A DNA stretch of 64,000 bases from Gemmatimonadota bacterium (GTDB lineage Bacteria > Gemmatimonadota > Gemmatimonadetes > Gemmatimonadales > GWC2-71-9). The stretch spans positions 8,312 to 72,311 of the forward strand of contig JBDHAB010000014.1 in NCBI GenBank assembly GCA_039588295.1, written 5' to 3'. Below, piece by piece: positions 31,146-55,363 of this stretch. Position 1 is the stretch's first letter. Every line of letters starts with the position of its first letter. Both the position numbers and the translations under genes were made by a program. Below the pieces are notes generated by a model. That model had not been told where the DNA came from. It ran no database searches and was given only the letters and a program-made list of their open reading frames with translations.

Positions 31146-31146
31146 T

Positions 31147-33781: not shown

Positions 33782-33838
33782 GATGCGTTTCGTGAAAAGC
33801 GCCCGACGGTAGCTGGCCTATCTGCTCCCCCTCAGTAG

Positions 33839-37294: not shown

Positions 37295-37828
37295 ATGGCC
37301 GAACCCGCCGAAAATCTGGAACCCTCCGAAGTCACCTACACCACAGGCGACGCGACGAAGCCCGAGGGGGAAGGACTCAAGATCATCGCCCACTGCTGCA
37401 ACAACATAGGCGGCTGGGGGAAAGGATTCGTCCTGGCTTTGAGCAAAAAGTGGCCGCGCCCCGAGCAGGAATATCGGGAGTGGTACGAGCGCCACGGAAC
37501 TGTGAAATTCCGCAAGATGCTCGGTGCCATGCAGCTCGTCCCCGTCGAGAACGACATCTACGTCGCCAACATCATCGGGCAGCACGGCACCGGGGGCGGC
37601 GAAAAGCCTCCCATCCGCTACGAAGCAATCGGCAAAGGCTTCAAGTTCATCGCGCAGCACGCCATGGCGCACCCCGAGAAGAAGGTCAGCGTGCACATGC
37701 CACGCATCGGGTGCGCGCTCGCAGGGGGCTCCTGGTCAGAAATCGAAATCCTGATCGACCAGTACTTCGTGACGAACGGAATCCCCGTGACCGTCTACGA
37801 CTGGCCCGGCGGGACGTTCAACCCCTAG
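37295..37828 (+). CDS. Macrodomain (ADP-ribose processing) protein
   Basis: GDAT, IIAHCCNNIGGWGKGF, MPRIGCALAGG.W. Confidence 0.9.
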   Translation: MAEPAENLEPSEVTYTTGDATKPEGEGLKIIAHCCNNIGGWGKGFVLALSKKWPRPEQEYREWYERHGTVKFRKMLGAMQLVPVENDIYVANIIGQHGTGGGEKPPIRYEAIGKGFKFIAQHAMAHPEKKVSVHMPRIGCALAGGSWSEIEILIDQYFVTNGIPVTVYDWPGGTFNP

Positions 37829-38133
37829 TCCTTCCAACCGGTCTCGGGGTCCCAACGCTCGTCGGGCTTGTAGGGACCCCACCCCATGATCTCGTTTCGC
37901 TTGTTGCACGCCTCGATGTACGAGGATGCCATGAAGCGATGCAGGACGACGTGCCGCTCCTCGAAACTCAACAGCTTGTGGCCACCAGGCTTCGTCGAAC
38001 ACAGGGAGAGGTTGTTCGGTTCGTCGTCGGGGTCCCCTTTGAGGTATCCCTCGCAGACGAGCCATTCGACCGGTGATCCGTCGTGTTCCTCGGCAAACCA
38101 CCGGTCGAATTCAGAGTAGTAGCGGTCGCTCAT
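37825..38133 (-). CDS. Hypothetical protein
   Basis: ATGA overlap with the RNase Z gene. Confidence 0.55.
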   Translation of the reverse strand: MSDRYYSEFDRWFAEEHDGSPVEWLVCEGYLKGDPDDEPNNLSLCSTKPGGHKLLSFEERHVVLHRFMASSYIEACNKRNEIMGWGPYKPDERWDPETGWKD

Positions 38134-38978
38134 ACTCGATCCCCTCCATCGAAGAAATGGATTCGATCAAGCATCGCCGCAGGAAACCGCTTCTTGGCGA
38201 TCTCCTCGATCTCGGCCCGCTTGTACCGCATGGAGCGGTGACACAACACGAGAGCTTCGCCTTCGAACTTCTCGCAGTGCTCCACCATCTCAGCGATGTG
38301 GGTGTGGCCGAAGTTCCGACACCCTTCGACGTTGTTGAAACCCTCGTCCCAGACGGTGACCTCGTGAACGAGGATCTTGGCCTTGCGGGCGAGCTCCTGA
38401 TTGAGCAGGAACTCGATCTGCGTGTCACCGGGAACAGCGAGGATCGGAGCCGTCTTGGCGTCCGTGATCTCGACTCCATTCTTGCGGAGACGGCCGAGCT
38501 CTTGGCCTTCGACCCCGACGAACTCCGGCTTGATCTTGCGAGTGGTGCGCTCGATGACGTACCCGACCGAGGGTGCACGGTGGATGGTTTCGAGAACCTG
38601 GGCCGTGTACTCCTTGTCGATCTTGATGGAGTCCCCAGGCTTGACGCCCACGACCTCCAATGTGGAGTCAGGATTTCGGTCACCGAACAAGGTGCCCAAC
38701 GTGTTGAGCACAGTCTGGACCATCTCCAGGATCTGCTCTGGCACGTAAACGGTCAGAGGAGTCTTTGCACTCCTGGTGCTTCTCTTCCCCACGATGTGGG
38801 GAAGCGCCATGAAGTGGTCGGGGTGACTGTGCGTGATGAAGAAACGATCAGCAGTCACGCCCGGAAGGACGCAGCCGGCATCGAACACCGAACGCACTTC
38901 GGGGCAGTAGACCGAAGTCTGCACGCCTCCTTGCGCAAACCCCTGTAGGGTCACGCCTGCTACGGTGAATTTCTCCAT
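38130..38978 (-). CDS. rnz: RNase Z-type metallo-beta-lactamase (tRNA 3' processing)
   Basis: FDAG, THSHPDH, H...SVGY, exosite-like arm, GDT, HEVT, GHTH, HRSMRY; directly after a tRNA cluster. Confidence 0.8.
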   Translation of the reverse strand: MEKFTVAGVTLQGFAQGGVQTSVYCPEVRSVFDAGCVLPGVTADRFFITHSHPDHFMALPHIVGKRSTRSAKTPLTVYVPEQILEMVQTVLNTLGTLFGDRNPDSTLEVVGVKPGDSIKIDKEYTAQVLETIHRAPSVGYVIERTTRKIKPEFVGVEGQELGRLRKNGVEITDAKTAPILAVPGDTQIEFLLNQELARKAKILVHEVTVWDEGFNNVEGCRNFGHTHIAEMVEHCEKFEGEALVLCHRSMRYKRAEIEEIAKKRFPAAMLDRIHFFDGGDRV

Positions 38979-39017: not shown

Positions 39018-39114
39018 TGGTGCCCAGGGACTGGATTCGAACCAACGACGCACGGTGGTTTAGGACCGCCGCTCTACCACGAAGACCCGAAAGTCCTCTC
39101 TGAGCTACCTGGGC
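39018..39114 (-). tRNA. Atypical tRNA with a hairpin inserted in the D-loop; anticodon ambiguous
   Basis: GCCCAGG/CCTGGGC-A-CCA, GCTC/GAGC D-stem around GAGGACT-TTCG-GGTCTTC, TTCGAAT T-loop; anticodon arm GGCGGTCCTAAACCACCGT. Confidence 0.6.
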
Positions 39115-39335
39115 AGGTGAGTCGCTCTTTATACGCCAACCGGTTCACCGGTTCGAGGATCGACCCAATACCACCCGATGAACTCCTCCGGATACATGTA
39201 GCCGCGGGCTCGCTGTTCTGGCGTGGGCCGACGTTTCACGTAACCAACCTCGATCAGATGCTCACGGCACCAGATCGATCTGGGCATCGTTGGGTGGCTA
39301 CATGCTCTGCAAATCCCGGCATTGTGGTGATCCTT

Positions 39336-39411
39336 TGGTGGTCAGACCTGGAATTGAACCAGGGACACGCGGATTTTCAGTCCACTGCTCTACCAACTGA
39401 GCTACCTGACC
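39336..39411 (-). tRNA. tRNA-Phe(GAA)
   Basis: Canonical 76-nt cloverleaf, loop CTGAAAA, CCA. Confidence 0.92.
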
Positions 39412-39611
39412 ATACGGGTGGGACGCCGACCAGCCATTTGGCTGACCGGCTCCGTAAAGGTCTCGGTGTTGCGGACAGGCTTGCTATCGGGTTGCACGGT
39501 TCGGCCGCAGCGTACGCATGTACGACTCCCGTCCTCGGCAGTTTTACTGCCGAGCATCCCGTCGTGGTTGCACGCGTGCGTGCGATCGTAGTGAGTGAAA
39601 ATTAGTGACAT
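39402..39611 (-). CDS. Small Zn-finger-like ORF between the Phe tRNAs
   Basis: CNH...CVRCG; the stop lies inside the tRNA 5' end. Confidence 0.35.
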   Translation of the reverse strand: MSLIFTHYDRTHACNHDGMLGSKTAEDGSRTCVRCGRTVQPDSKPVRNTETFTEPVSQMAGRRPTRMVR

Positions 39612-39629
39612 CGTTCTGTTCTTTCGACT

Positions 39630-39707
39630 TGGTGCCTCGGGACGGAATCGAACCGCCACCTTCCCGGCTTCAACGGGACGCTTGCGTACCAAGTCAGCTT
39701 CCGAGGC
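39630..39707 (-). tRNA. tRNA-Phe(GAA), variant
   Basis: TCCCG-TTGAAGC-CGGGA, atypical D-arm, CCA. Confidence 0.8.
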
Positions 39708-39763
39708 GTGCAGATATGGCTTAGGCCGGGACGGCTCGCTCCAACAGGAACAAGCAGCCTCGG

Positions 39764-39928
39764 CTAGCTAAACTGCACGCCAACGGCGTTTTTGGGGTGC
39801 GTGACGGGATTTGAACCCGCGACCTCTGCATTCACAGTGCAGCGCTCTACCTGCCGAGCTCCACGCACCATAGGATGGTGATGGTCTTCGCCCTCAGAGA
39901 GGGGCTCGGTATGGAGTTGCGTCAACAT
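39764..39928 (-). CDS. Putative His/Phe-sensing leader ORF reading through tRNA-His
   Basis: MLTQLHTEPLSEGEDHHHP...QFS*; HHH ends 5 nt before the tRNA-His 5' end. Confidence 0.55.
   Translation of the reverse strand: MLTQLHTEPLSEGEDHHHPMVRGARQVERCTVNAEVAGSNPVTHPKNAVGVQFS
39793..39869 (-). tRNA. tRNA-His(GTG)
   Basis: Cloverleaf with G-1:C73, loop CTGTGAA, CCA. Confidence 0.92.
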
Positions 39929-39947
39929 GGTGAACCTTGAGATGGGC

Positions 39948-39975
39948 AGAATACTCGTGTGAGACGCCCTGTCAA
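39948..39975 (-). promoter_or_regulatory. Sigma70-like promoter of the His/Phe tRNA unit
   Basis: TTGACA-16 nt-TATTCT. Confidence 0.6.
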
Positions 39976-40024
39976 GAGGAGATGTTCAAAAACAGGCCCC
40001 GACCGGTACGATTACACAGAGGTC

Positions 40025-40399
40025 ATGCGGAACTTCGTCTACTGGAACATCTACGACAAGGTGTTCACCGTCCAGAACCGAGAGACCGGTCGAGTACGTC
40101 GGCACACCCCGAACATCACCCTCCGAGATGTCGATTTTGAGATCGACCAAAAGGAGCGGGAGCGGATGCTCAGAGAAAATCGGAAGACCCTCCACGCCGG
40201 GGTCCGGGGGGAGATCATCCCAACCGACCCGGAAAACCTAGAAGGCTGGACACAGGTGATCTACGACCCCGGCAGACACACCACCTTCGTCACCATCGAG
40301 GACGAGAAGCCGGTGTTCAGAGCCGAGCTCGTGCACATGTTCGTGAAGAACCAGCGAGCCCAGGTCTACGCGAAGGGCCTCACCTACGAGTTCGTGTAG
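40025..40399 (+). CDS. Hypothetical phage protein
   Basis: GAGG SD; start MRNFVYWNIY. Confidence 0.65.
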   Translation: MRNFVYWNIYDKVFTVQNRETGRVRRHTPNITLRDVDFEIDQKERERMLRENRKTLHAGVRGEIIPTDPENLEGWTQVIYDPGRHTTFVTIEDEKPVFRAELVHMFVKNQRAQVYAKGLTYEFV

Positions 40400-40717
40400 C
40401 TCGCCTTCGGGCGACACTTCCACATCACGTCACGCAGGAGGTGGCGTCGAGTGGGCCTCGTGGTGCATGCCGGGCACGGAGAGGAACGTCCGGCGCTATG
40501 GTGTATGACGAGCTCGTCATCGCAGCGCCAACAGACGACACCCGGAGGGGATGCCATCTCCTCCGGGTGTTCGTAGTCATCCATGAAATTGGCGGCCCGG
40601 GATCCCGTACAAGGTTGGGCGTCCCCTAGCCCCGAGCGGCCCTCGACATTCCCCGCAAGCCGTCGCCTGCGGGTTCCGTCGGGAGCATCGTGGGCCTCCC
40701 TGGCCATATTGTGTAGG

Positions 40718-40794
40718 TGGTAGCGGGAACGAGATTTGAACTCGTGACCTCCGGGTTATGAGCCCGGCGAGCTACCTGACTGCTCCATCCCGCA
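40718..40794 (-). tRNA. tRNA-fMet(CAT)
   Basis: Unpaired 1:72, GGG/CCC anticodon stem, CTCATAA, CCA. Confidence 0.9.
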
Positions 40795-40920
40795 TCAGGT
40801 TGAGAAAATACGAGACCAGCCTGTCACGTCGCCCATCGGCGGCTGTTCTCGGGATTGTGATTTGCTACGAAAGGGGTTCCCCGGGCGCTCCTGTGAGCGC
40901 CGCGCGGGGAGGGAAAAGTT

Positions 40921-41071
40921 GATCAACGCCGAGTGAATAACCTTGAGTTGCGTTTTCACGCCAGATTTACATGTCTGGTGGCTTTACCAATTTGCCTATC
41001 TGCCCTTAGTGGTGGGCAGAGTTGGACTCGAACCAACAATTGCTTGTGAGATTGTTCTGTTGGCGTTGATC
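40921..41071 (-). ncRNA. Circularly permuted tRNA-mimic RNA A (Y-RNA-like)
   Basis: Terminal stem GATCAACGCC/GGCGTTGATC; then CACAAGCA, T-arm, loop-closed acceptor TCTGCCC-ACCACTAA-GGGCAGA, D-arm, anticodon arm. Confidence 0.8.
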
Positions 41072-41079
41072 GAAAAGTT

Positions 41080-41211
41080 ACGAAGCGACCGAGTTGAAGA
41101 GCTTGTTTGGTTGCAAAGCTGGAATCGAACCAGCGACCTACTGTGTCATTGACAGTTGCTCTAACCGAATGAGCTACTTGCTTGTGAGCCCTGCTGTGGT
41201 GGTTGCTTCGT
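41080..41211 (-). ncRNA. tRNA-mimic RNA B (long stem continues from the acceptor stem)
   Basis: ACGAAGCAACC/GGTCGCTTCGT enclosing CACAA-GCAAG, D-arm, ACTGT-CAATGAC-ACAGT and T-arm. Confidence 0.8.
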
Positions 41212-41342
41212 GGCGCCGGATCCAGGAGTCGAACCTGGCAGTTGCTTGTAGACATTCACCCGTGAGCTCCCCGGAGGGAGCGAGTGGCGGTGTCGGATCT
41301 AGCCGATCTGAAAAATCGGTGACCCCCACGGGTCAATCCGGC
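41211..41342 (-). ncRNA. tRNA-mimic RNA C (giant variable arm, CCA end)
   Basis: GCCGGAT/ATCCGGC-G-CCA, 6-bp D-stem, loop TTTTCAG, about 60-nt variable arm ending TACAAGCA. Confidence 0.8.
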
Positions 41343-41420
41343 AAGTGGGGTGTTCGCTTGAGGGAGTTCCCTCTTCTCCCCCGAAGGGAAAGGGCAGCGA
41401 AACGGTGCCCTGAAAAAGTT

Positions 41421-41554
41421 GCGAAGTGACCGAGGGGAGAGGCTGTTTTGGTGCAAGGAGCAGGATTTGAACCCGCGACCTTCTGGTTATCGACCAGACG
41501 CTCAACCGACTGAGCTATCTTTGCTTGTGAGCCTAACTGGAGTGGTCACTTCGT
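41421..41554 (-). ncRNA. tRNA-mimic RNA D (paralog of B; encloses an Ile(GAT)-like tRNA at 41449-41524)
   Basis: ACGAAGTGACC/GGTCACTTCGC, CACAA-GCAAAGA, loop TCGATAA, internal ACCA. Confidence 0.8.
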
Positions 41555-41556
41555 AG

Positions 41557-41692
41557 TGGAGGACCCTGGATTCGAACCAAGAGTTGTTTAGCTTGTGGAC
41601 ATTCGCCGAGAGCTCCCGTGAAGGAGCGAGTGGTGGTGTCGGTTTCTACCGATTTACCGTCGGGTTGACCCTCCATTAGGGCCGTGTCCTCC
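41557..41692 (-). ncRNA. tRNA-mimic RNA E (paralog of C)
   Basis: GGAGGAC/GTCCTCC-A, GGCCCT/AGGGTC D-stem, loop CGGTAAA, giant variable arm ending CACAAGCT. Confidence 0.8.
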
Positions 41693-41845
41693 ATGTTGTT
41701 CAGGGTAGTTCCGAGTACGTGGTCTGGGGGGCTTCAAGGTCCCGACCGCTACTGGGTCGGGGTTGTGCTTGTTAGACCTGCGTGTATGGAACAGCCGTGA
41801 GTTCGGGATACTGCGCGCAGTCATACACGCTGTCAAGACCCTTTC

Positions 41846-42418
41846 TCAGATTTTCTCAACTCCGGCCGGCGAAATCGAGTAGCCGGTCTTGCGGCCGGCC
41901 TTGATGAACCGCTGCGCCGCGTAGGCGATGTAGGTCGCGGTGAGCTGGATGAACGGCAGGAACTCCCCGTCCTCGCAGGTCGGAGCTCCAGCGTCGCCCA
42001 CGTCGTCGATGACGAAGTCCTCGTCCCAAATGGCCCGCCCAAAGCCCCCATCGGCCGCAAGAGCCCCGTGGAGGCACGGGACCCCGTGCTCCCGAGCGAA
42101 CTTCTGAACGATCCTACGGGCCTCTCCGTTGTCCAGGCAGTCGATGAGTAGATCCGCCCCGCCGAGAAGCTGATTCTCGTTGTCGGCCGTCAGCTTGTTG
42201 CTCACGACCTCGATCTTACGGCCATAGCAGAACTGCATGGCCGCCTTGAGAGCCTCAGTCTTCTTCTTGCCCACCCCATTCTTGAAATGGAACTGAGAAG
42301 CGACGTTCTTCATCTCCACCCGGTCGAAGTCGATGACCTTGATGGTCACCTCCTCGTTCCGGAGGGTCTGCACCAGATGGGAACCCAGTGCGCCGACGCC
42401 GATGATCGTGATTTTCAT
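41846..42418 (-). CDS. ThiF/E1-like adenylyltransferase
   Basis: IIGVGALGS, IDFDRVEMKN..SQ, GKKK, DCLDN, candidate catalytic Cys in PTC. Confidence 0.92.
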   Translation of the reverse strand: MKITIIGVGALGSHLVQTLRNEEVTIKVIDFDRVEMKNVASQFHFKNGVGKKKTEALKAAMQFCYGRKIEVVSNKLTADNENQLLGGADLLIDCLDNGEARRIVQKFAREHGVPCLHGALAADGGFGRAIWDEDFVIDDVGDAGAPTCEDGEFLPFIQLTATYIAYAAQRFIKAGRKTGYSISPAGVEKI

Positions 42419-42432
42419 GATGAGGTCTCCTT

Positions 42433-42792
42433 TTACTTGTCGCCCTTTTTCTGCTTCAGGATCTCGTCGGCCACCATCCCCAGGAATTCGTCCTTGCGTT
42501 GCTCTCGACGAACCTCACCCCTCCGAAGGGTCTCTCGCAAGAAATCCACGGTGGACTCGCGAGCCTGACTGACCGCCTGTTGGAGACGATCCGTATTCTT
42601 GATGGCATCCAGGACCGAAGTGGACGGCCCCTTGGCAGTGAACGTGAACTTGTCCCCGTCCTTCACCAAACGGGAACTCCCTCCCGCGGATTGGTGGAGC
42701 TTCCGCAGAGCTCGGAACCCCTCCATCGTTTTCGACCACATCGACTCCGGAATTTGGAGGGTGACGGTGTGTTCGATTATGTCGTTGCTCAT
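42433..42792 (-). CDS. Hypothetical protein within the Ubl operon
   Basis: 119-aa ORF between Ubl and E1. Confidence 0.65.
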   Translation of the reverse strand: MSNDIIEHTVTLQIPESMWSKTMEGFRALRKLHQSAGGSSRLVKDGDKFTFTAKGPSTSVLDAIKNTDRLQQAVSQARESTVDFLRETLRRGEVRREQRKDEFLGMVADEILKQKKGDK

Positions 42793-42828
42793 CGGGATCT
42801 TGAACCGGGTTTGTTACCTCTATTCCCG

Positions 42829-43092
42829 TTAGCCCCCGAACGGAGTCTTCGGACGAACCTGAATCAGGTTGTAGTCCCGATCGGCGTTCGCCGAAAAACG
42901 GTCCACCACGAAATCGGCGAAATCCGGATCCGCGTCGGCCGGAATGCCCGGGATCGACCCATTGGAAACGGCCTCCGAAACCCAGGTCTTGATGTCGCCA
43001 TCGACGGCATCGAAGAACACAGGATCCGGGAGATCCCCGTTCTCTCCCTTGTAGGTGATGTTGAGACGTGCTTGCGTGTTATCCATGTCCAT
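42829..43092 (-). CDS. Ubiquitin-like protein with C-terminal GG
   Basis: 87 aa ending LIQVRPKTPFGG; AAGGAG SD; lies between JAB and E1. Confidence 0.8.
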   Translation of the reverse strand: MDMDNTQARLNITYKGENGDLPDPVFFDAVDGDIKTWVSEAVSNGSIPGIPADADPDFADFVVDRFSANADRDYNLIQVRPKTPFGG

Positions 43093-43465
43093 GACGATTC
43101 TCCTTTGAGTAGTCGCGGAGCTGTGCAGCCCAGTCGGGCTCGTCCGCGAGAAAATGGTTGTAGTCGTGCTTCTTGGGTCCTTCGTAGTTCAAGCCGATCA
43201 CACGATCGGAACTCGTGATCCACCAGGTCAGGCGTCGCCCGAGCCCGAGCTCTACGGCGGCGAAGGTGGTGATGTCGGTCCAGGAAGGGCCGGGCAGACC
43301 CGACCCCGGGTGACTGTGTGCGAACCCCAGGAATGCTTCCCTTCGGTGCTCCCACAGAACGTCCCACAGATCCCGACTGTCGGGGAGACTGCCTCCCGTT
43401 CGGCCGTTTGGCAAATGCCAATGGACGACTCCTGCACCCGTAATGACTGCGCCTGCTTCGATCAT
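43079..43465 (-). CDS. JAB/MPN metallopeptidase
   Basis: N-terminal E and GFAHSHP.....GPSWTD JAMM motif. Confidence 0.88.
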   Translation of the reverse strand: MIEAGAVITGAGVVHWHLPNGRTGGSLPDSRDLWDVLWEHRREAFLGFAHSHPGSGLPGPSWTDITTFAAVELGLGRRLTWWITSSDRVIGLNYEGPKKHDYNHFLADEPDWAAQLRDYSKENRHGHG

Positions 43466-43548
43466 CGCTTCCTCCAAGGAACATGCGTGAACGCCAAAAT
43501 GAGCACGCAGATCAGCATGAACACGAGCACTACGGGTGAAAAATTCAT
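43462..43548 (-). CDS. 28-aa membrane peptide
   Basis: MNFSPVVLVFMLICVLILAFTHVPWRKR; ATGA overlaps at both ends. Confidence 0.55.
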   Translation of the reverse strand: MNFSPVVLVFMLICVLILAFTHVPWRKR

Positions 43549-44123
43549 CGTTTCCTCTTCTTGATAACTCGTGGAATCTCGTCGAGAGTCGCCAGAACTT
43601 CCTCGTTCTGACGTTTCTGCCATCCCTGGAGCCTTACCGAGGTCTTCAGGTAGTAGGGATGCTTGAGCCAGTCAGCGTACTGAATGTTGCCTCGCACCTT
43701 GTTGCACTTGCGGCAAGCCGACACGAGGTTGGCTTCGGTGGACGGCCCTCCGTCCTCCCAGAGCACGAGGTGGTCCACGGTGAGCGGGACCTCCTTGTTG
43801 TTGCAGTAACGGCAGGCGTACCCATCACGCCGATAGACGTTCCAGGAGACACCCTGCTCGATGTTGCGTTGGCACTTGCGGGCGACGGACTTGTACAGCT
43901 TCCCGTCCTCGGCCTTCTCCAGCACTTCGGTCTCGACGAGGTCGGACTGACGGATGAGTTTTTGCCATTCCTCGGTCGTCGGGGTGAGGACACGGATGTC
44001 CCCTTCATGCTCTCCGAATTCGGGGAACACGACGACGAGGGTCTGATCGTTGCCAGCCCACACCCCACCCACCAGGAGAATCTCCTGGCCAACGGTCTTG
44101 ATATCGAGGTCTTTGAATTCCAT
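43545..44123 (-). CDS. HNH endonuclease
   Basis: RDGYACRYC...LTVDHL...GG....NLVSACRKCN. Confidence 0.9.
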   Translation of the reverse strand: MEFKDLDIKTVGQEILLVGGVWAGNDQTLVVVFPEFGEHEGDIRVLTPTTEEWQKLIRQSDLVETEVLEKAEDGKLYKSVARKCQRNIEQGVSWNVYRRDGYACRYCNNKEVPLTVDHLVLWEDGGPSTEANLVSACRKCNKVRGNIQYADWLKHPYYLKTSVRLQGWQKRQNEEVLATLDEIPRVIKKRKR

Positions 44124-45055
44124 CAGACATGCCTCCATACGACGAGCTTGTGCTCGCGGATCGCTTGGCGAATAACTGCGGGCAGAGATTCCAGAGTGAA
44201 GTAGGTGTCGCCCTTCTCATCGGTGCCGTGATCTGTAAGACAAACACCGGCATCGATGATTTGGAGGTTCGTGTCGCACACGCACTCCAGGCGCTGCCCA
44301 TCGACGCGGTACTTCACGGTCCACTCATTCTTGCGACCACTCTTACGGTGGTCCAGATACTGCGCACCGCCGACCGTGAGAGCCGCCTTGGCAGCCTCCT
44401 GGAAATCCTCCTTGGCCAGTTCACGCCGACCAGCACCATCCCCGAGCTTCTCCAGGAGCTCCGCACGACGAGCCACCTTGGCGAGACGGGCCTCCTCCTC
44501 GGCACGACGACGGATGAGCTCCTGACGACGAAGCTCTGCCTGCTGACGCTGGTAGACCTCCATGCGGAAGGCTGCATCGAGCGCGGGCACCACACTGCGG
44601 ATACCGAACGTGCTGATCTGGTTGTCGAGAAAAGCGTTCATGACTTCCTCTTCGGGACCGAGGGGAAAATCCTGCTCACAGAAAATGAGAGGCCCCTCGG
44701 GGTAAATGCGGCCAGCTCGCACACGCGAGAACCGGTCGAGGTCTTCGGGAAGGAGATAGACCTTCTCCGAGTAGTTGATGATCTTGCCCGGGTCGGGGTC
44801 GATCCGGGTGTCGTCGGGGACCAGACGGTCCCCGACCAGGTAGCCCTTGACCGAGCTCTTGAGAAGTTCAGGAGCCGGGTCAGCGGGCTTCGGGTCCTCG
44901 GCCTTGTTGCCTTCGATCTGGAAGGCGTACCAACCAAAATCCCGAGGCCGAGTCCCGAGCTTGAAAGTTCGGGACTCGGAGTGGAGAGACCCACCACCCG
45001 TCCAAGGAAGAGTAGTGGTCTCCCCCTCGGCCGTGAGTAGATCTCTCCAACCCAT
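44123..45055 (-). CDS. Candidate divergent E2-like protein
   Basis: C-terminal DAGVCL followed by FTLESLPAVIRQAI resembles the E2 G.[IV]CL active site and following helix; operon context. Confidence 0.5.
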   Translation of the reverse strand: MGWRDLLTAEGETTTLPWTGGGSLHSESRTFKLGTRPRDFGWYAFQIEGNKAEDPKPADPAPELLKSSVKGYLVGDRLVPDDTRIDPDPGKIINYSEKVYLLPEDLDRFSRVRAGRIYPEGPLIFCEQDFPLGPEEEVMNAFLDNQISTFGIRSVVPALDAAFRMEVYQRQQAELRRQELIRRRAEEEARLAKVARRAELLEKLGDGAGRRELAKEDFQEAAKAALTVGGAQYLDHRKSGRKNEWTVKYRVDGQRLECVCDTNLQIIDAGVCLTDHGTDEKGDTYFTLESLPAVIRQAIREHKLVVWRHV

Positions 45056-45064
45056 GGGGTCACC

Positions 45065-46957
45065 TCATGCCCATGCGGGCTTCTGGAGAAGCTCCGTTTG
45101 AAGGATTTGGTCCACGAGCGTCACACGAGGGCGCGCGCGACCAGCCACCGCTTCCCCAACCGGGGTTGCAGCGATCAGAGCCCGAATCGTCCGAGTGATC
45201 GCGTAGGGATCCTCGAAGGTACGGTCATCGAGCATGAGGCACGGGATACCGAGCCGGTTGGCCGTCTCTCGCACCGCGGTGCTGTTGTCCGCGCCATAGT
45301 GACGCGCACGCCAACCCGCGGCTCCCCCGAACGCAACCGTCTTGAGGAACCCGAAAGCGACCGGGCGCAGGCCCGAAGCCTCGACGGCCGTGTGGAAGGG
45401 ACGTGCCTCCTCATCACCAATGAAGATGATCAGAGAGTCCTCGTCATCCGCGGGCTTGTACTTCTGGAGCACACGGATCCCGGCACCGTAGTCAGTACCA
45501 CCGCCAGCGCCGATGCCACGGAAAGCCGCCTCCACACCCTTCGTCGAAGCGTGCTTGATGGTGACCTCCCGACCGTTCGTGTTGAACACGGCGACCTTCA
45601 CCTGGTCGAGCGGGAACGACTGGAGGAACTTGGCGATCAGAGGCTTTGCAGCATCCAGAGCACCCTGCATCGACCCCGAGATATCCACGAGGAACTTGAT
45701 CGACAAGCCACGGATGGTCTCCTCGACCACCTTCTGAGCCACCTTGTCGGCACCCTCCTCCATCGTCTCCTGGAGCTCCTTGGACCGAACGTTGCGGGCG
45801 ATGTTAGCCGCACGCATGTCGTCCGCCTTGGCGAGAGCCGCAGCGTGGCGCTCCTTGATTTCCTGGATCTTGAACAGGCCCAGGTCCTCCAGGGTCGGAG
45901 TCATGATGATGATGTCCTTGTCCGAAAGGGACCCGGCCTCGATGGCCGCAACCATCACTGCACGAGTGACTCCCACCTTCGGAGGAAGGAGACCCACGAT
46001 CCGCTTCCAGTTCGGCTTGGTCTTCTCGATGAGCTGGCAGATAGCCGCCTCGTTGAGATCGTCCCACGACTCGGCAGCCTTGACCGCCTTACCGATCGCC
46101 ATGCCACGCCGGCCGTCGTCGGCCTGCTTCTGCTTCCAGCGCAGAGCCTCGAAGAACTTGTCCGAGGTCGGCTTGTAGCCGATACGCCGAGCCATGGTCA
46201 TGACCGTGGTACGGAACCCGGCCTTGACGAGACCCTCCAGCATCTTGGGGTTCTCCTCACGGAACCGAAGCCACTTCTCGATGGCCTTGGGCCATCGACC
46301 GAGGAACGGACGCTTGGCCGACTTGCCGAAGCCGAGCTCGCGGTTGATCTCCGCGATCTCGGGCAGCATGAGCACGTCGTAGATCCGAAGCAGGAGCTTC
46401 GGGTTCAGATCCTTGCCCTTCTCCTGGAGAAGAAGCATGGCCTCACCGACGTTCCGGTAGTCGTCATCGTCGAACAGGTGCTCACCGCCGTCCATGACGG
46501 GGTCCCCCTTCCGAGACTGAACCAGAAGGAACGCAGCGAGCACGACCTTGAGGTCACGGTGCTCCTGACGGAAGGCGAACGAAGCCCACTTCGCAGCGAA
46601 CTCGTTGTCCATCTTCCAGACCTCAGCGACCTGCTTGTAGAACCACACCGCGACCTCGGGGAACAGACCGCTCTTGCGGTACAGCCCCACCTCGTTACGG
46701 CCGTTCCGAACGGTGTTGTCGCCGTTCATCGTGCCGATCTCGGTACGAACGTTCTTCTTCCCCGCCTTGCTGAGACGGAACACCTTCTTGACGCCGTCCG
46801 CCTCCTTGTGCGTGACGGGATCCCACCGCACGCCAATAGTGGCACGCGCGTCGGGAACCACAACGCCAGGGCGGTTGTGAACCATGTGATCTGAGTACGC
46901 CAGGAGAGACTGGATGATGGTCTCAGCGGGCCCGAGGTTTTCCTTGTTGTTCTCCAT
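45065..46957 (-). CDS. Ro60/TROVE-like helical protein with C-terminal vWA domain
   Basis: MIDAS DISGSM, GGGTDY, IFIGDEE after a long basic helical region; flanked by tRNA-mimic RNAs. The vWA call is solid, the TROVE call is inferred. Confidence 0.7.
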   Translation of the reverse strand: MENNKENLGPAETIIQSLLAYSDHMVHNRPGVVVPDARATIGVRWDPVTHKEADGVKKVFRLSKAGKKNVRTEIGTMNGDNTVRNGRNEVGLYRKSGLFPEVAVWFYKQVAEVWKMDNEFAAKWASFAFRQEHRDLKVVLAAFLLVQSRKGDPVMDGGEHLFDDDDYRNVGEAMLLLQEKGKDLNPKLLLRIYDVLMLPEIAEINRELGFGKSAKRPFLGRWPKAIEKWLRFREENPKMLEGLVKAGFRTTVMTMARRIGYKPTSDKFFEALRWKQKQADDGRRGMAIGKAVKAAESWDDLNEAAICQLIEKTKPNWKRIVGLLPPKVGVTRAVMVAAIEAGSLSDKDIIIMTPTLEDLGLFKIQEIKERHAAALAKADDMRAANIARNVRSKELQETMEEGADKVAQKVVEETIRGLSIKFLVDISGSMQGALDAAKPLIAKFLQSFPLDQVKVAVFNTNGREVTIKHASTKGVEAAFRGIGAGGGTDYGAGIRVLQKYKPADDEDSLIIFIGDEEARPFHTAVEASGLRPVAFGFLKTVAFGGAAGWRARHYGADNSTAVRETANRLGIPCLMLDDRTFEDPYAITRTIRALIAATPVGEAVAGRARPRVTLVDQILQTELLQKPAWA

Positions 46958-47100
46958 GGTGTCTCTTCCTCTCTAGTTTCGTGAAAAGTCGGGGCTGGCC
47001 CTTGTACCCCTGAGTTACGTGAAAATATGGGCCTTGCACGAAAGAGCCAAGGAACCTCAACTTTCCGGCCTTTTTGACCGGGCGCCGTTGATCCTTAGCT

Positions 47101-47177
47101 TGGTTGCGACGGTGGGAATCGAACCCACGACCTCTCCCTTATGAGGGGAATGCTCTGCCGGACTGAGCTACGTCGCA
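47101..47177 (-). tRNA. tRNA-CAT (Met or Ile2)
   Basis: Cloverleaf, CTCATAA, CCA. Confidence 0.88.
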
Positions 47178-47234
47178 AAAATGCCCGTTGCTGCACTGCG
47201 CTCGACTGGTACGGGCGGCCCGTCGAACTGAAAA

Positions 47235-47312
47235 TGGTAGCGGGTCTCGGATTTGAACCGAGGTCTCGGGATTATGAGCCCCGCGGGGACAACCGGACTC
47301 CCCCAACCCGCA
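47235..47312 (-). tRNA. tRNA-fMet-like (CAT)
   Basis: Unpaired 1:72, G-rich anticodon stem, CCA. Confidence 0.85.
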
Positions 47313-47465
47313 AAATTTAGTGAACCTGTGACAGCGTGAGGTTCTTGCGCCCACGGATGCGGCGAAGTGCTCGACTAGGGCTCTGCTTTTTCCCGAGTCC
47401 TAGTTGAGCTCGGACGAGCTGTTCGAGACGGAGGAACTCGTCCTCCGTCAGCTCGTCCTCCGTCG

Positions 47466-47501
47466 TTAGTAGATCTTGAAAACTTCGTTCGTCATCCCCA
47501 T
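47466..47501 (-). CDS. Putative leader peptide MGMTNEVFKIY upstream of the Met tRNAs
   Basis: GAGG SD; followed by alternative hairpins. Confidence 0.4.
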   Translation of the reverse strand: MGMTNEVFKIY

Positions 47502-47521
47502 CGTGTCGTCCTCGACTTTCT

Positions 47522-47599
47522 TGGTGGACGTAGGTGGATTTGAACCACCGACCTTCCGCTTATCAGGCGGCTGCACCGACCAGGCTGTGCTACACGTCC
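47522..47599 (-). tRNA. tRNA-Ile(GAT)
   Basis: Cloverleaf, CTGATAA, CCA. Confidence 0.9.
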
Positions 47600-47603
47600 T
47601 CGG

Positions 47604-47677
47604 TCGGCCTGGAAGGAGTTGAACCTTCGACCTCGCACTTATCAGGCGCGCGCTCTAACCAACTGAGCTACAGACCG
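47604..47677 (-). tRNA. tRNA-Ile(GAT)
   Basis: Cloverleaf, CTGATAA, followed by CCG rather than CCA. Confidence 0.9.
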
Positions 47678-47720
47678 AGTAGATAATCGGTCCAATGTCA
47701 CTCTCGTCTTCGTTTTCCAT
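47655..47720 (-). CDS. Ile-containing leader ORF reading into tRNA-Ile
   Basis: AAGAAAGGAGCAG SD; MENEDESDIGPIIYSVCSSVG*. Confidence 0.6.
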   Translation of the reverse strand: MENEDESDIGPIIYSVCSSVG

Positions 47721-47751
47721 CTCGGTCTGCTCCTTTCTTGGTTGATGTTCT

Positions 47752-47826
47752 TGGTAGCCTCGGACGGGATTGAACCGACGACCTTCACCGTGTCGAGGTG
47801 CTGCTCTGCCACTGAGCTACGAGGCT
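47752..47826 (-). tRNA. tRNA-Val(GAC)
   Basis: Cloverleaf, loop TCGACAC, CCA. Confidence 0.85.
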
Positions 47827-47831
47827 GTGTT

Positions 47832-47905
47832 TGGTACCGAGTGAAGGACTCGAACCTTCGCTTCCATCGTGTGAAAATGGCACTCTACCTCTGAGTTAAC
47901 CCGGC
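47832..47905 (-). tRNA. tRNA-Val(CAC)
   Basis: Cloverleaf, loop TTCACAC, CCA. Confidence 0.88.
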
Positions 47906-48571
47906 ATAGTTTTTGAGTTGGTCCATCCATCCTTCGATGCGAGCTCGGAAAAGTGTGTCGTGAACCGCGACCTCCAAACACCCGTAGGGATGCCCTTTCC
48001 GTTTTCCTTTGTTGGTTTTGTTCAAATTCTTCGTGGCCTTGATCTTGGAAGACGCCACTCCAGACACCCGGCTCCAGTACCGTTTAGCTTTGCTACCGTC
48101 CAGCGACGGGTGCAGACGAACCCGCAGTCTAATTTTGTCTTCGGGGACCTCACACTCCTCCCGTAGAAACTGGAGCACGAATCGAATCATGTCCGGGTCC
48201 GTGTTGCTGATTGAAAACGAGTTCCTTTCCTTTTTACCTTCACCCCAGTAGAGCGCAGCCATCACTCCCCGGAGGGTGCGACTGGAAAGGTCAACGGGAA
48301 TTTCCCTTCGACCTCGTACCCGAGCCTCTTCTCGTTTCTTGGCCCAGATTTGCTTAGGGGAGTTGGGGTGGGATGCTGCGGCGATGCGTCCTTTCAGACG
48401 CCCTTGTTCCTCCTTGTCTCGTAGTTGTTCGACCTGTTGCTTGGTAAGGGGGATGTCTCGGGTCCAACGACTGATTGAACTTTTGGCGCATCCCGTGTGA
48501 TTGGCGATCTCGGTGAGGGACTGTCCCTGACGACGCAGGTCTCTTGCTTCTTCTCGTTGATCAGGCTTCAC
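47885..48571 (-). CDS. HTH plus LAGLIDADG-like endonuclease
   Basis: SLTEIANHTGCAKSSISRW (HTH); ALYWGEG, FSISNTDPDMI..V..FL, YWS. Confidence 0.7.
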   Translation of the reverse strand: MKPDQREEARDLRRQGQSLTEIANHTGCAKSSISRWTRDIPLTKQQVEQLRDKEEQGRLKGRIAAASHPNSPKQIWAKKREEARVRGRREIPVDLSSRTLRGVMAALYWGEGKKERNSFSISNTDPDMIRFVLQFLREECEVPEDKIRLRVRLHPSLDGSKAKRYWSRVSGVASSKIKATKNLNKTNKGKRKGHPYGCLEVAVHDTLFRARIEGWMDQLKNYAGLTQR

Positions 48572-48634
48572 CGTTTCAGTATGGCAGAAATGGAACCGAC
48601 GGCCAAGGTGTCCTGTGCGGACCAGTGTAAAAAG

Positions 48635-48710
48635 CGGGGCGTACGGGATTTGAACCCGTGACCTCCTACGTGACAGGCAGGCGTCCTAAGCCAGACTAGA
48701 CCAACACCCC
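48635..48710 (-). tRNA. tRNA-Asp(GTC)
   Basis: Cloverleaf, CTGTCAC, G73, no encoded CCA. Confidence 0.9.
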
Positions 48711-48841
48711 ATGTTGGCGGAGCAGACGAGAATCGAACTCGCAACCTTCGGACAGACAATCCGTTGCGCTACCAATTGCGCCACTGCTCCGTACATATCG
48801 TCGGTATCGTCCGCATCATCGCTTTCGCTGTTGGTGTTCAT
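48686..48841 (-). CDS. Asp-rich leader ORF reading through tRNA-Asp
   Basis: AAGAAAGGAGCAG SD; MNTNSESDDADDTDDMY then enters the tRNA. Confidence 0.65.
   Translation of the reverse strand: MNTNSESDDADDTDDMYGAVAQLVAQRIVCPKVASSILVCSANMGCWSSLA
48715..48790 (-). tRNA. tRNA-Asp(GTC), variant loop
   Basis: Loop TTGTCTG, G73, CCA. Confidence 0.85.
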
Positions 48842-49083
48842 CGTGCTGCTCCTTTCTTGGGGTGAGTGGGTGTCTGGAAAGTTCGGCTGTTTGATCCCAC
48901 AGGCCGTCCGGTCGCCTGCTGTATCGCCCCTCGGTGCGGTGCGCTGTCGTGCACCTCGCTTCATCGAGGCGCGTTAGGATGGGATGGAAAAGTTGAGGCT
49001 TTTGTGTCTACCGGTCAGCCTCGGTGGCCGGCCATCACGGATCCTTGATCAGGGGACAACCTGGGACAGGATTGGAAAAGTTA

Positions 49084-49235
49084 GGGATGCAGGTGAGTGT
49101 GCAAGGTGGGTGTGCAGTCATTTGACCACTCCGGCATAAATGGAGCCGGAGCCTGGATTCGAACCAGGAGTCTTCTGTGAATGAAACAGATGTCTTTACC
49201 TTTTGCTTGTGACCTTAAACGGGGACCTGCGTCCC
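49084..49235 (-). ncRNA. Circularly permuted tRNA-mimic RNA F (opened in the D-loop)
   Basis: GGGACGCAGGT/ACCTGCATCCC; CACAAGCA, 3' half of D-arm, TCTGT-TTCATTC-ACAGA, T-arm, CTCCGGC-TCCATTTAT-GCCGGAG, 5' half of D-arm. Confidence 0.8.
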
Positions 49236-49275
49236 GGAGCCCACGGAGGGATTCGAACCCTCGACCTCAGACGTA
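49236..49275 (-). pseudogene. Isolated tRNA 3'-half fragment
   Basis: GAGGTC-GAGGG-TTCGAAT-CCCTC-CGTGGGCTCC with no 5' half. Confidence 0.6.
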
Positions 49276-49278
49276 CGG

Positions 49279-49353
49279 AGCCCGCGAGAGGATTCGAACC
49301 TCCGACTCCCTCATTACGAATGAGGTGCTCTAGCCGGACTGAGCTACACGGGC
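49279..49353 (-). tRNA. tRNA-Thr(CGT)
   Basis: Cloverleaf, TTCGTAA. Confidence 0.9.
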
Positions 49354-49390
49354 GATTGATGTTGGTGTTCTCCTGTTGAAGTGAAGTGCT

Positions 49391-49464
49391 TGGAGCTGGC
49401 GGTGAGAATCGAACTCACGTCTTCGGGTTACAAATCCGGAGCTCTGCCATTGAGCTACGCCAGC
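49391..49464 (-). tRNA. tRNA-Thr(TGT)
   Basis: Cloverleaf, TTTGTAA, CCA. Confidence 0.9.
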
Positions 49465-49760: not shown

Positions 49761-50540
49761 TCACCATCGCCACACGAACTCGTCGAGCCACTGCTTGCGG
49801 CTCTCGTCGTCGAGCGCGAGGAAAGCCTGCTCCTCCGCCATCATCTCCACGTTGAAAGCGTCGGCAATCTTGCGGTGTGCGGTGCCGGGGTCGAACGCCC
49901 AAGGCTGCCAGGGGTAGTGGGCCCCCAGGCGATACTGGTTCTCCACCTCGATGATGCAGTCGATCCACGGCTTCATAGACGCCCACGTCATCGTCTCACG
50001 GTCCATCTCGCGCTTGGCGAACTCCTGCCGGTGCAGGAGCTTGAGCGGGAGCGGGCTGTGCCCGAGGTTGTCGTTGATGGAACGCCCCGCGATGACGATG
50101 TTCGACTGGCCGTTACCGAGGCCGTTGTTGCGCTCGCATACGAGATGCTCCCGAGAGCACTCCCACGGAACGTAGTAGTGAAGAGCAATCCGGAGGTCCG
50201 TAGGGACGAGGTACATCTGGACGCCCGTGTACCAACATCGCTGGGGGAGGCCCGCATCGAGGCCGAACCGCTTAGCCATCTTCACCGAGACCCAGTCCCG
50301 GTTTTTATTGCGCTTTGCGATCTCGTCGTAGTGCATCCACACGAGCTCGGGGTCGTGCTGATCGCCCCCGGTCATCACCAGGAGCTCCCGGTCAGCGTAC
50401 TTCTTGTAGCGAAGGAGGCGTCCGGTCTCGGGGTCAACACGGTTTAACGCGGCAACGCGCATCCGCTCTTGAAATTCGGGATCGTGTTTCCCTTTCCACT
50501 CGCGGAGCTTATCCCGGTTCTTTCGACCGTGACGGCCCAT
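49761..50540 (-). CDS. HNH-like protein
   Basis: CWYTG...SREHL...NIV....IN pattern. Confidence 0.55.
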   Translation of the reverse strand: MGRHGRKNRDKLREWKGKHDPEFQERMRVAALNRVDPETGRLLRYKKYADRELLVMTGGDQHDPELVWMHYDEIAKRNKNRDWVSVKMAKRFGLDAGLPQRCWYTGVQMYLVPTDLRIALHYYVPWECSREHLVCERNNGLGNGQSNIVIAGRSINDNLGHSPLPLKLLHRQEFAKREMDRETMTWASMKPWIDCIIEVENQYRLGAHYPWQPWAFDPGTAHRKIADAFNVEMMAEEQAFLALDDESRKQWLDEFVWRW

Positions 50541-51817
50541 CAGTGTCGGGGAACATTCCCGGGGTCGACAGCGATCTTCGCCACGATCCTCTTGCACTCG
50601 GAACACGAAACCGTGAGGGCTCCGTTCTCGTAGGAGCACCAGGTGGGGGCACCGATGTGGCACTGGGGATGCAGGAACATCTCGGTGCTGTGGCTCTTGT
50701 GGTCACACCCCTCCACGGCGCACGTCATACCGTCGAGCGTCACCTGGGTCAGCGGCGGGAGGTTTTTGCGGCGCCCATTCTCCGCCTCGACCACTTCCTC
50801 GTCGTCCCCCTCGTGGTCATGGCTCCCATGCTTGTGGGACAGTATCGGCCCCAACGCCGGATAGAATTTCATGGCGTCGTTGGGCATCTGCGGAAACCCA
50901 GAGACCTGACCGTCACCGATCTCCATGATGATCCACTCGCCGTCTGCCGTCTGTGCGAGGTCCATGGAGAAGAACTGGCTGTCCACCTTCGCCGCCAGCG
51001 CGCCGAGAGTTTCGAACGAAGGGAGATCCTCGATGGATTTCGGGGCCGAAAAACTGCGAGGCATACTCTCCTCCCAACCACCGTCGGGCTCCGGGACCTC
51101 GTGGGTGACACGCTCGTAGGCGTCCTCGTCCCAGTACTCGCTGATGTTGATGCTGTGTCCGTTGAGCCAGAAGATTCGGAACTCCTCCGACATCGGCATC
51201 CCCGACTGAGGATGCTTGCCGATGGATTTGAGCGGCACGAACTGACGCAGGATCACACCCCCCTGGAGATCGTCACCCTGGCGCTCCAGGAAATTCGAGA
51301 TCACGGTCTGGGCCTTCTCCATGTTGGGGATGAAGCACGCCTCCTCCCACTCGTGTTTCCTACTTTTCACGTAGTCCTTGATGAGGATGCCGTGCTCGTA
51401 ACGACCGAGCATCTCCTGGGCAGTACGGAGGATCCTCTCGACACTGATCTCATGCTTCTGGATGATTGCGGAGTCGGGCGTCGAATCGACGAGATCGAGG
51501 TACCAACCGGGGAACTCGTGAGCCTTCCGATACTGGTGGGGGGTGTTGATGAGGTCCACCAGGCAAACCTGGAGCTTCTCGTAGAGCTTCTCGTACTGAT
51601 CGGACGTGAGCATCCACCCCCGGTAGATAGCCGGTGTGGGCTCCTCGAAATCAGGGACGTACTTCACGGCCGCTGCCGCATCGTCGTCGTTGACCAGGGA
51701 CTCCCAGTGCACGAAAGCGACCTGATAGCCACACTGCTTGGCGATGTCGGCTTCGGTGGCCCAATCTGGGTCGGGTTTTTTGGGCTCGAAGGGATCGGAT
51801 GGGAACAGGACGAGCAT
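50540..51817 (-). CDS. ATP-grasp protein (R2K clade) with C-terminal Cys/His domain
   Basis: YRGWML, KDYVKSRKHEW, EFRIF, FFSMD...EIGDGQVSG. Confidence 0.8.
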   Translation of the reverse strand: MLVLFPSDPFEPKKPDPDWATEADIAKQCGYQVAFVHWESLVNDDDAAAAVKYVPDFEEPTPAIYRGWMLTSDQYEKLYEKLQVCLVDLINTPHQYRKAHEFPGWYLDLVDSTPDSAIIQKHEISVERILRTAQEMLGRYEHGILIKDYVKSRKHEWEEACFIPNMEKAQTVISNFLERQGDDLQGGVILRQFVPLKSIGKHPQSGMPMSEEFRIFWLNGHSINISEYWDEDAYERVTHEVPEPDGGWEESMPRSFSAPKSIEDLPSFETLGALAAKVDSQFFSMDLAQTADGEWIIMEIGDGQVSGFPQMPNDAMKFYPALGPILSHKHGSHDHEGDDEEVVEAENGRRKNLPPLTQVTLDGMTCAVEGCDHKSHSTEMFLHPQCHIGAPTWCSYENGALTVSCSECKRIVAKIAVDPGNVPRH

Positions 51818-51852
51818 TACCTCGATTTTACCCCTATCGGGCCCCGTATCTG

Positions 51853-54963: not shown

Positions 54964-55041
54964 GGGCCGGTAGCTCAGTCTGCGCAGAGCGGTGGGTTCT
55001 TACCCCATAGGTCGAAGGTTCGATTCCTTCTCGGCTCACCA
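54964..55041 (+). tRNA. tRNA-Lys(CTT), variant loop
   Basis: Loop TTCTTAC, CCA. Confidence 0.85.
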
Positions 55042-55362: not shown

Positions 55363-55363
55363 A

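Follow-up and report, generated by a model that had tools for sequence, protein, structure and literature searches.

E1-, E2- and JAB-type parts are described outside eukaryotes in Bub systems (10.1101/2024.11.21.623953), and BilA, the ubiquitin-like protein (Ubl) of Bil systems, is described as having a single conserved Gly and a short tail that is removed by the JAB protease BilC (10.1101/2023.09.26.559546). As far as these published accounts extend, the characterised type II CBASS, Bil and Bub systems are host-side and RNA-free. Ro60/Rsr proteins and their Y RNAs (YrlA) are reported from bacteria and phages (PMC4201824, PMC7824862), the YrlA RNAs with the motif GNCGAAN0-1G (PMC4201824). Here we analyze an operon at 41846-46957 in a 64,000-nucleotide stretch (the window) of contig JBDHAB010000014.1 (assembly GCA_039588295.1, positions 8,312 to 72,311), in which an E1/JAB/Ubl set is tied to a Cys carrier without a family, to a protein with a von Willebrand factor A (vWA) domain and to a family of RNAs. 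The operon is real, conserved and larger than first described, and together with its RNAs we refer to it as the cassette. No description of it was found in the literature searched, although supplementary operon tables or subscription papers could list it.

From comparison of the sequences, we interpret the cassette as a reversible Ubl conjugation relay that would run from Cys148 of the E1 to Cys272 of a 310-aa protein (g310) and be coupled to a particle of the vWA protein and tRNA-mimicking RNAs. We give this reading, with proteins as the conjugated substrates, about an even chance. As a small and fully encoded system of five proteins and RNAs of 130-150 nt, the cassette opens questions about phage-run Ubl conjugation, target choice in E3-less systems and the role of tRNA mimics beside phage tRNA arrays.

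A conserved five-gene unit in giant phages and myxobacteria

The operon comprises the following open reading frames (ORFs), listed in the direction of transcription:

45065-46957, minus strand: vWA protein, 630 aa, core gene 1 (Pfam VWA_2, E 1.4e-10)
44123-45055, minus strand: g310, 310 aa, core gene 2 (no Pfam family)
43545-44138, minus strand: HNH endonuclease, accessory insertion (Pfam HNH, E 5.8e-11)
43079-43477, minus strand: JAB/JAMM metallopeptidase, likely start ATG 43465, core gene 3 (Prok-JAB, E 9.3e-5)
42829-43092, minus strand: small protein (putative Ubl), 87 aa, ending PFGG, core gene 4 (no Pfam family)
42433-42792, minus strand: 119-aa ORF, accessory (no Pfam or PHROG match)
41846-42418, minus strand: minimal E1, 190 aa, core gene 5 (Pfam ThiF, E 3.8e-25)

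All seven were found at these coordinates, in agreement with the co-oriented and mostly tightly coupled operon of the original prediction. From the 630-aa to the 190-aa gene the spacings are 9 nt, an overlap, 67-79 nt, an overlap, 36 nt and 14 nt, and the second ATG of the HNH gene overlaps the stop of the gene upstream.

To place the operon in context we fetched 160 loci: 55 from IMG/VR, 25 from GTDB genomes and, out of 438 metagenome matches, the best 80. Gene order was scored with iterated profiles, without de-duplication, at loci flanked by 5 kb or more upstream and 7 kb or more downstream. The order vWA-g310-JAB-Ubl-E1 is exact in 67 of 76 such well-flanked loci, so that the neighbourhood survey suggested with the original prediction recovers a fixed arrangement. 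The nine exceptions comprise three loci without E1 in view, three without vWA in view and three without JAB. This conservation of gene order is far beyond chance. Of 121 loci, 18 have a full HNH gene inserted between g310 and JAB, and the 119-aa gene is matched in 2 of 160; both were rejected as core genes on these counts. We take the unit to be five genes plus RNAs rather than seven genes, with the HNH and 119-aa genes as passengers. At one locus (L143) the order of Ubl and JAB is swapped and the Ubl has no tail.

The search for g310 retrieved 1600 homologues. A profile of its C-terminal domain matched 423 clusters (50% identity), and nearly all of the best 150 are about 300 aa long. A match to a 2168-aa repeat protein (P0256) was discarded as false. 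Within the Myxococcota, the cassette is matched in 7 of 301 genomes. Five divergent myxococcal copies are on contigs of 0.14-3.2 Mb; the five-gene set is complete in four and partial in one (L276). At loci from metagenome-assembled genomes (MAGs), the flanking genes look by eye like ordinary cellular genes. A phage-only distribution was rejected on the basis of the chromosomal copies in Myxococcota. In a quick g310 tree (99 rows, even-numbered metagenome loci omitted) copies from phages and from MAGs are intermixed; there are 10 changes, of which at least 3 are forced. The cassette is common to many giant phages (300-600 kb) and some myxobacteria. In viral loci of at least 10 kb it stands among tRNA genes in 47 of 53 cases, a count without formal baseline, and this location fits a role in protecting translation.

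The window represents most of a 72-kb contig (C14) of a 4.5-Mb MAG. The GC content of this contig is 0.604, against 0.625-0.660 in the other 39 contigs listed, and ARAGORN finds 19 tRNAs on it. A PHROGs scan of 58 proteins identified endolysin, holin-like, RNA ligase and DNA methyltransferase genes, and found neither capsid nor terminase. Positions 14001-34000 of the window have 64-79% DNA matches, largely collinear, in four of five IMG/VR records, including one of 618,736 nt estimated to be 92% complete. Given the collinear jumbo-phage DNA, the PHROG genes and the deviating GC content, we conclude that the window is a fragment of a jumbo phage binned into a bacterial MAG, whose organism may not be the host of the phage. 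The claim that the operon is phage-encoded therefore stands for the window, but not for the cassette as a whole, which is also chromosomal in Myxococcota.

E1, JAB and maturation of the small protein

The E1 matches Pfam ThiF with 88.9 bits (cut-off 28.1), and its profile matches MoeB (1jw9) with E 3e-16; the closest E1 structures are MoeB, Uba4 and ThiF. The protein is a bare adenylation domain with neither rhodanese nor N-terminal extension. It has the marks of the ThiF/MoeB/E1 adenylyltransferases (GxGxxG, an ATP-site Asp/Lys/Asp and a crossover-loop Cys), with D30, K53, D93 and C148 conserved; Cys148 is present in 102 of 102 sequences and, by our count, aligns with MoeB Cys187. In the JAB protein the JAMM residues (Glu plus HxH-x7-S-x2-D) are near-invariant: Glu in 116/116, the two His and the Ser each in 115/115 and the Asp in 114/115, although the Prok-JAB score of 22.7 bits is just below the cut-off of 25. 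The ThiF/E1 and JAMM motifs read from the single sequence are thus borne out across the family. The JAB protein is predicted to trim the tail of the Ubl and to reverse conjugates.

The conserved C-terminal RPKTPFG of the small protein is extended by a tail without conservation, which ranges from 0 to more than 50 residues in length. In the window the tail is one residue long, making Gly86 the candidate reactive Gly. The original prediction had pointed to the PFGG end, and the sequence does end so, but only PFG is conserved: among the 120 distinct complete sequences (out of 141 matches) used for all Ubl counts, Gly directly follows the conserved Gly in 8, and a di-glycine motif was rejected. 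The Ubl ends at the conserved Gly in all 8 loci that lack JAB but in only 18 of the 112 that have it (Fisher p = 1.9e-6); among MAG loci alone, tail-free Ubls are counted in 8 of 8 loci without JAB and in 3 of 17 with it (p = 1.5e-4). Two loci missed by the JAB motif filter, L114 among them, were counted as JAB loci after inspection. The JAB-less loci are scattered on the g310 tree (7 changes, at least 2 forced by well-supported branches), and a JAB search in five JAB-less genomes, run without positive control, found nothing. The joint loss of JAB and tail would fix the mature C-terminus at the conserved Gly, and it supports a JAB-dependent maturation in which the protease exposes this Gly. 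We regard this coupling as the best functional evidence for the cassette. The small protein is predicted to be a ubiquitin-like modifier, and its alternating hydrophobic pattern fits, by eye only, a strand-strand-helix-strand-strand arrangement.

The tails themselves are diverse. Some, among those at L026, L044, L045, L047, L079, L104 and L113, are Cys-rich and zinc-ribbon-like with 14-33 residues, and would be released by JAB as peptides; others are domains of 45-60 residues.

The kinship of the E1 with MoeB, Uba4 and ThiF is also what would be expected of a sulfur relay, in which the small protein forms a thiocarboxylate, as in ThiS, MoaD or Urm1, and the nucleic-acid-type folds and Cys272 of g310 thiolate tRNAs or tRNA-like RNAs. 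JAB proteins with tailed carriers are described in sulfur pathways (PMC1779556), and the location among tRNA genes would suit such a role. However, the E1 has no rhodanese, the small protein has no ThiS or MoaD profile match, and no sulfur-donor or thiolase gene was recognised by eye among the 45 commonest neighbour clusters. We consider a sulfur relay decidedly unlikely.

A predicted carrier with one invariant Cys

The AlphaFold (AF2) model of g310 (mean predicted local distance difference test, pLDDT, 86.6) shows a pair of small beta-barrels that weakly match OB/cold-shock domains (ribosomal S17-type Z 5.3, RNase II 4.7, Mpa OB pair 4.6), together with a helix of 48 residues and an alpha/beta domain at the C-terminus. 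Modelled alone (pLDDT 87.9), the C-terminal domain shows a helix, a meander of 3-4 strands, a Cys loop and a helix. Cys272, which lies after the meander and before the last helix, is the only invariant Cys of the protein, present in 137 of 137 sequences and in 131 of 131 divergent representatives; D283, E289 and R308 are near-invariant. C258 is replaced by Ser in all five divergent chromosomal copies, and C260 and H276 are each retained in about half of the representatives (66/131 and 61/131). Because C258, C260 and H276 are not conserved, a Zn site formed by these residues and C272 was rejected. We take g310 to be a likely catalytic Cys carrier in the E2 position.

A family of tRNA-mimicking RNAs

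Five tRNA-like RNA units follow the E1 gene and fill 40921-41692:

41553-41692, minus strand: layout 2, a cloverleaf with the module in the variable-arm position (fold and family covariation); not called by ARAGORN or Rfam
41422-41553, minus strand: layout 3, the module being formed by pairing of leader and trailer around a tRNA-Ile(GAT)-like core (ARAGORN 41449-41524, fold)
41210-41342, minus strand: layout 2, second copy (sequence, fold, family covariation)
41080-41211, minus strand: layout 3, the module enclosing a tRNA-like core that ARAGORN labels 'His' (anticodon ATG; ARAGORN, fold)
40921-41071, minus strand: layout 1, circularly permuted, ends paired in the module, YrlA-like order (family covariation)

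The units share a module of stem, internal loop with CUCG, stem and then ACA[AC]GC, set in three permuted layouts. In layout 1 the order is T arm, acceptor hairpin, D arm and anticodon hairpin. T-arms outside ARAGORN tRNAs (orphan T-arms) occur beside the cassette at 1.14 (viral), 1.23 (metagenome) and 0.95 (MAG) per kb, compared with 0.20, 0.22 and 0.064 per kb elsewhere, and none of those beside the cassette is on the antisense strand. The motif YACAHGS precedes 152 of 214 orphan T-arms beside the cassette, but only 20 of 951 tRNA T-arms. Of the 72 complete loci, 61 have a motif RNA within 2.5 kb. The 4.5-Mb MAG has five motif-RNA sites, three of them at the cassette, and the RNAs persist at chromosomal loci without any ARAGORN tRNA.

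The layout 1 alignment (36 hand-picked sequences) is 92.5% paired, with a covariation of 0.688 against 0.225 in shuffled and at most 0.142 in slid controls. Layout 2, which ends at the acceptor stem, is 84% paired with a covariation of 0.654 (shuffled 0.206, slid at most 0.232) in an alignment of 56 sequences picked from 95 candidates plus the two of the window. The margins of covariation are wide, although the controls overstate certainty since the structures were derived from the same alignments and the sequences are related. For layout 3, 62 of 76 motif-led tRNAs have CTCG in the trailer, as against 144 of 834 others, and 64 of the 76 are within 2.5 kb of the cassette.

By motif and by Rfam score these RNAs are not YrlA: GNCGAAN0-1G is near only 19 of 152 RNAs, and the 40921-41071 RNA, on the same strand as the vWA gene and about 4 kb from its end, scores 23.1 bits (E 0.32) against YrlA (RF02553), whose gathering threshold is 69. 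They form a tRNA-mimicking family that is absent from Rfam. Since these tRNA-like RNAs belong to the cassette itself, its tie to tRNA biology is stronger than first proposed.

With RNAs and OB folds in one cassette, the modifier might itself be attached to RNA, being discharged from Cys272 onto a 3' end or base amine of a tRNA or mimic and so capping or blocking it. The joining of nucleic-acid-type OB folds to a Cys domain in g310 and the free-ended acceptor stems of layouts 2 and 3 would accommodate this, but in layout 1 the acceptor stem is closed by a loop, and we know of no precedent for attachment of a Ubl to RNA. We judge this very unlikely.

The vWA protein

In the 630-aa protein a basic N-terminal region of about 415 aa, without an assigned family, precedes the C-terminal vWA domain. 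The MIDAS residues (D425, S427, S429, T488, D515) are intact in 106 of 106 sequences, and residues 100-300 have a median net charge of +7. The original prediction called this protein TROVE-like. Full-length hhalign comparison with a 41-sequence Ro60 alignment gives 65% (E 6e-5), but the vWA strand alone produces that score; the N-terminal region by itself reaches 0.3% (E 0.21), within the range of 40 shuffles. We have withdrawn this support for TROVE; homology is unconfirmed, and the TROVE-like label is kept only as a lead. TROVE is not among the 25 Pfam families listed for 68 members. In a search by ESM Atlas features, viral and Myxococcota clusters of the family itself rank ahead of TROVE clusters, which are placed 14th and 19th with scores of 0.91-0.93. 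What we predict is an RNA-binding scaffold with Ro60-like architecture.

The proposed relay and the evidence against it

The steps proposed for the relay are given in order of falling confidence, the last two being the weakest. In the first, and best founded, JAB would cut after Gly86 and expose it. The minimal E1 would then adenylate Gly86 and take the modifier onto Cys148 as a thioester, from which it would move to Cys272 of g310, which would fill the role of an E2 with or without true UBC homology. The vWA protein would bind the CUCG / ACA[AC]GC module and display the tRNA-like domain, with the OB folds of g310 contacting RNA. Finally, proteins that grip tRNA-shaped RNA, such as host anticodon nucleases, tRNA toxins or translation factors, would be recruited, tagged on lysine and so disabled or redirected, and JAB would remove the tag. 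For phages, such a relay would serve to shield translation and the neighbouring tRNA array, and for myxobacteria it would act as a translation-stress module.

The RNAs span three permutations and many anticodon loops. A bolder and rather doubtful form of the proposal is that jumbo phages and myxobacteria assemble a particle of vWA protein and tRNA mimics whose interchangeable RNAs act as bait, luring proteins that attack or handle tRNA to a Cys carrier of non-UBC type, which would tag them covalently. If true, this would be a phage Ubl counter-defence in which RNA does the job of an E3, and a new kind of system.

Several observations weigh against the relay. In the E1, Ser replaces MoeB Arg73 and the Zn motif (CxxC) is missing; Arg33 and Lys37, both near-invariant, may compensate. 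The small protein has no beta-grasp match in Pfam, PDB, ThiS or MoaD profiles. At L114 a tailed Ubl coexists with a JAB that has Tyr for the last Asp. Motif RNAs are missing within 2.5 kb at 11 of the 72 complete loci, and the N-terminal region of the vWA protein resembles Ro60 no more than shuffled sequences do. No conserved target gene is found among the neighbour clusters, of which the largest is HNH-like/mobile by eye and all others are in at most 12 loci.

Further points concern the fold of g310. Its C-terminal domain has no Foldseek match at E<=0.001, and no UBC protein is among the Foldseek matches listed for either g310 model or in a second PDB structure comparison. In a wide VIA search, the best row (Z 4.5) is an unrelated protein. 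The whole domain is covered by FANCL (Z 4.0, root-mean-square deviation (rmsd) 3.8, 76 aligned), Ctf19 (Z 3.8), the E2 region of Cap2 (residues 7-148; Z 3.5, rmsd 4.0, 80 aligned) and a CdnG-E2 entry (Z 3.2), none of which rises above unrelated rows; dsRBD and ribosome-hibernation-factor folds score as well as E2s. In favour of an E2, ten of the top 50 rows, the Cap2 region among them, are what we take to be UBC/RWD-type chains. The HPN and YPxxP motifs are absent from this domain, and the E2 models of Pfam and PADLOC matched none of the members scanned (87 and 101, respectively); Prok-E2_B gave one weak match in 301 genomes. A search of the ESM Atlas with the C-terminal domain of one homologue returned no usable match. 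Enterotoxin-B-chain profile matches to this domain (E 0.03 or worse) and PADLOC RmrT matches to g310 (24 of 101, best E 4e-4) were taken as chance. Of the E2 tentatively assigned to this protein by the original prediction, the Cys stands, being invariant and in a loop before the last helix; structure prediction places UBC/RWD folds at Z 3.2-4.0, level with unrelated folds, and an E2 is not established.

This lack of structural support for a UBC fold above unrelated folds would suit an E2-free conjugation of the archaeal sampylation type, carried out by E1, Ubl and JAB, with g310 and the vWA protein as a separate RNA-binding pair. The UbaA model gives a match with E 1.5e-13 and the desampylase model one with E 0.065, both far under their cut-offs. 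Against this, g310 is fixed in its place between vWA and JAB, and a single Cys is invariant down to its most divergent copies; we hold E2-free conjugation to be highly improbable.

The absence of a convincing UBC fold and of a conserved target or E3 gene near the cassette would equally be expected of a self-contained switch, with g310 or the vWA protein as final acceptor and no outside protein tagged. By cycles of Ubl addition and JAB removal the particle would be loaded, gated or remodelled so as to repair or degrade RNA, much as Ro60-Y RNA particles do with PNPase. The vWA protein has eight Lys with a conservation of at least 85%, and ligase genes, presumably RtcB-like, stand near five loci, as does an RNA ligase gene in the window (32234-32938). 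On the other hand, g310 has no conserved Lys, and an adduct linked to Cys would be labile whereas JAB proteases cut peptide or isopeptide bonds. Such a switch is unlikely, and we retain the relay onto outside proteins as the preferred reading.

Genes and tRNAs around the cassette

The tRNA array that flanks the cassette in the window extends over 47101-49464 and 39021-40794 on the minus strand and 54964-55440 on the plus strand, with repeated isotypes (Met, Ile, Val, Asp, Thr and four Lys). Rfam tRNA-like matches at 39633-39707, 39021-39114 and 49152-49207 were missed by ARAGORN. At locus L273 (G408:C2:2491000-2505000), on a 3.2-Mb myxobacterial contig, the cassette is inside a dense tRNA array, as in the phage copies.

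RNA-handling or conflict genes nearby are:

38130-38978: metallo-beta-lactamase, by our reading RNase Z-like
37295-37828: macro-domain-like protein (PHROG 335)
32234-32938: RNA ligase
50540-51874: R2K ATP-grasp protein

The ligase genes that we label RtcB-like, by eye from a motif, are within 8 kb of the cassette at L007, L008, L013, L015 and L095. A thaumatin-family protein with a lipoprotein-like start is encoded at 51799-52869 on the plus strand (Pfam E 1e-27). Two Gly/Thr-repeat-rich proteins of about 2600 aa (window 6970-14850 minus; C14 6878-14668 minus) are possibly tail-fibre or virion proteins; the one scanned had no PHROG match. Within the operon, a 53-aa ORF (43462-43623, minus strand) with a hydrophobic end overlaps the HNH stop and the JAB start; with a third-position GC of 0.50 it is probably not a gene. 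NCBIfam and PADLOC scans of the operon proteins gave ThiF/E1, JAB and HNH matches, all sub-threshold. A sigma-70 scan of 40800-47200 found no promoter, and a TTGACA after the E1 gene is a by-eye lead only.

Comparison with known systems

The cassette resembles Bil in having separate genes for Ubl, Cys carrier, JAB and E1, and maturation of its Ubl would follow the BilA/BilC logic of a single Gly plus tail. By E1 architecture and gene order, however, it is not a Bil system. BilD has an IAD-AAD-CYS architecture with a Zn site and about 500 aa, whereas the cassette E1 is a single domain of 190 aa without CxxC, and the Bil order is Ubl-E2-DUB-E1 rather than vWA-g310-JAB-Ubl-E1. BilB has a clear E2 fold, which in the C-terminal domain of g310 is matched only at the low Z scores given above. 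Bil is a host defence without vWA protein or RNA, and the cassette has both.

With Bub and CBASS the cassette shares E1-, JAB- and E2-position parts. Bub forms Tyr/Ser oxyesters, has fused genes and includes DUF6527, whereas the cassette genes are unfused and the candidate carrier residues of E1 and g310 are both Cys; no cassette protein matched DUF6527, and the cassette does not qualify as Bub (6E/DUF6527). In type II CBASS, Cap2/Cap3 act on a cyclase as the tagged protein, but no cyclase gene is seen in the cassette.

With the ThiS/MoaD-ThiF/MoeB and archaeal SAMP/UbaA/JAMM systems the cassette shares a minimal MoeB-like E1 with a Cys187 equivalent, a small Gly-ended partner and a JAB. Unlike these, the cassette has no GG end, rhodanese, ThiS/MoaD profile match or metabolic enzyme, and it has an extra protein with an invariant Cys, g310.

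In its large N-terminal region joined to a vWA domain, and in the several same-strand tRNA-mimic RNAs alongside, the cassette recalls Ro60/YrlA; layout 1 has the T-AS-D order of YrlA and in the window is about 4 kb from the end of the vWA gene. It differs from Ro60 in that no TROVE homology is detected beyond the vWA strand, and from YrlA in its CUCG / ACA[AC]GC module in the variable-arm position, its retained anticodon arm and its three permutations. It differs from both in that its RNAs are linked to an E1/JAB/Ubl set.

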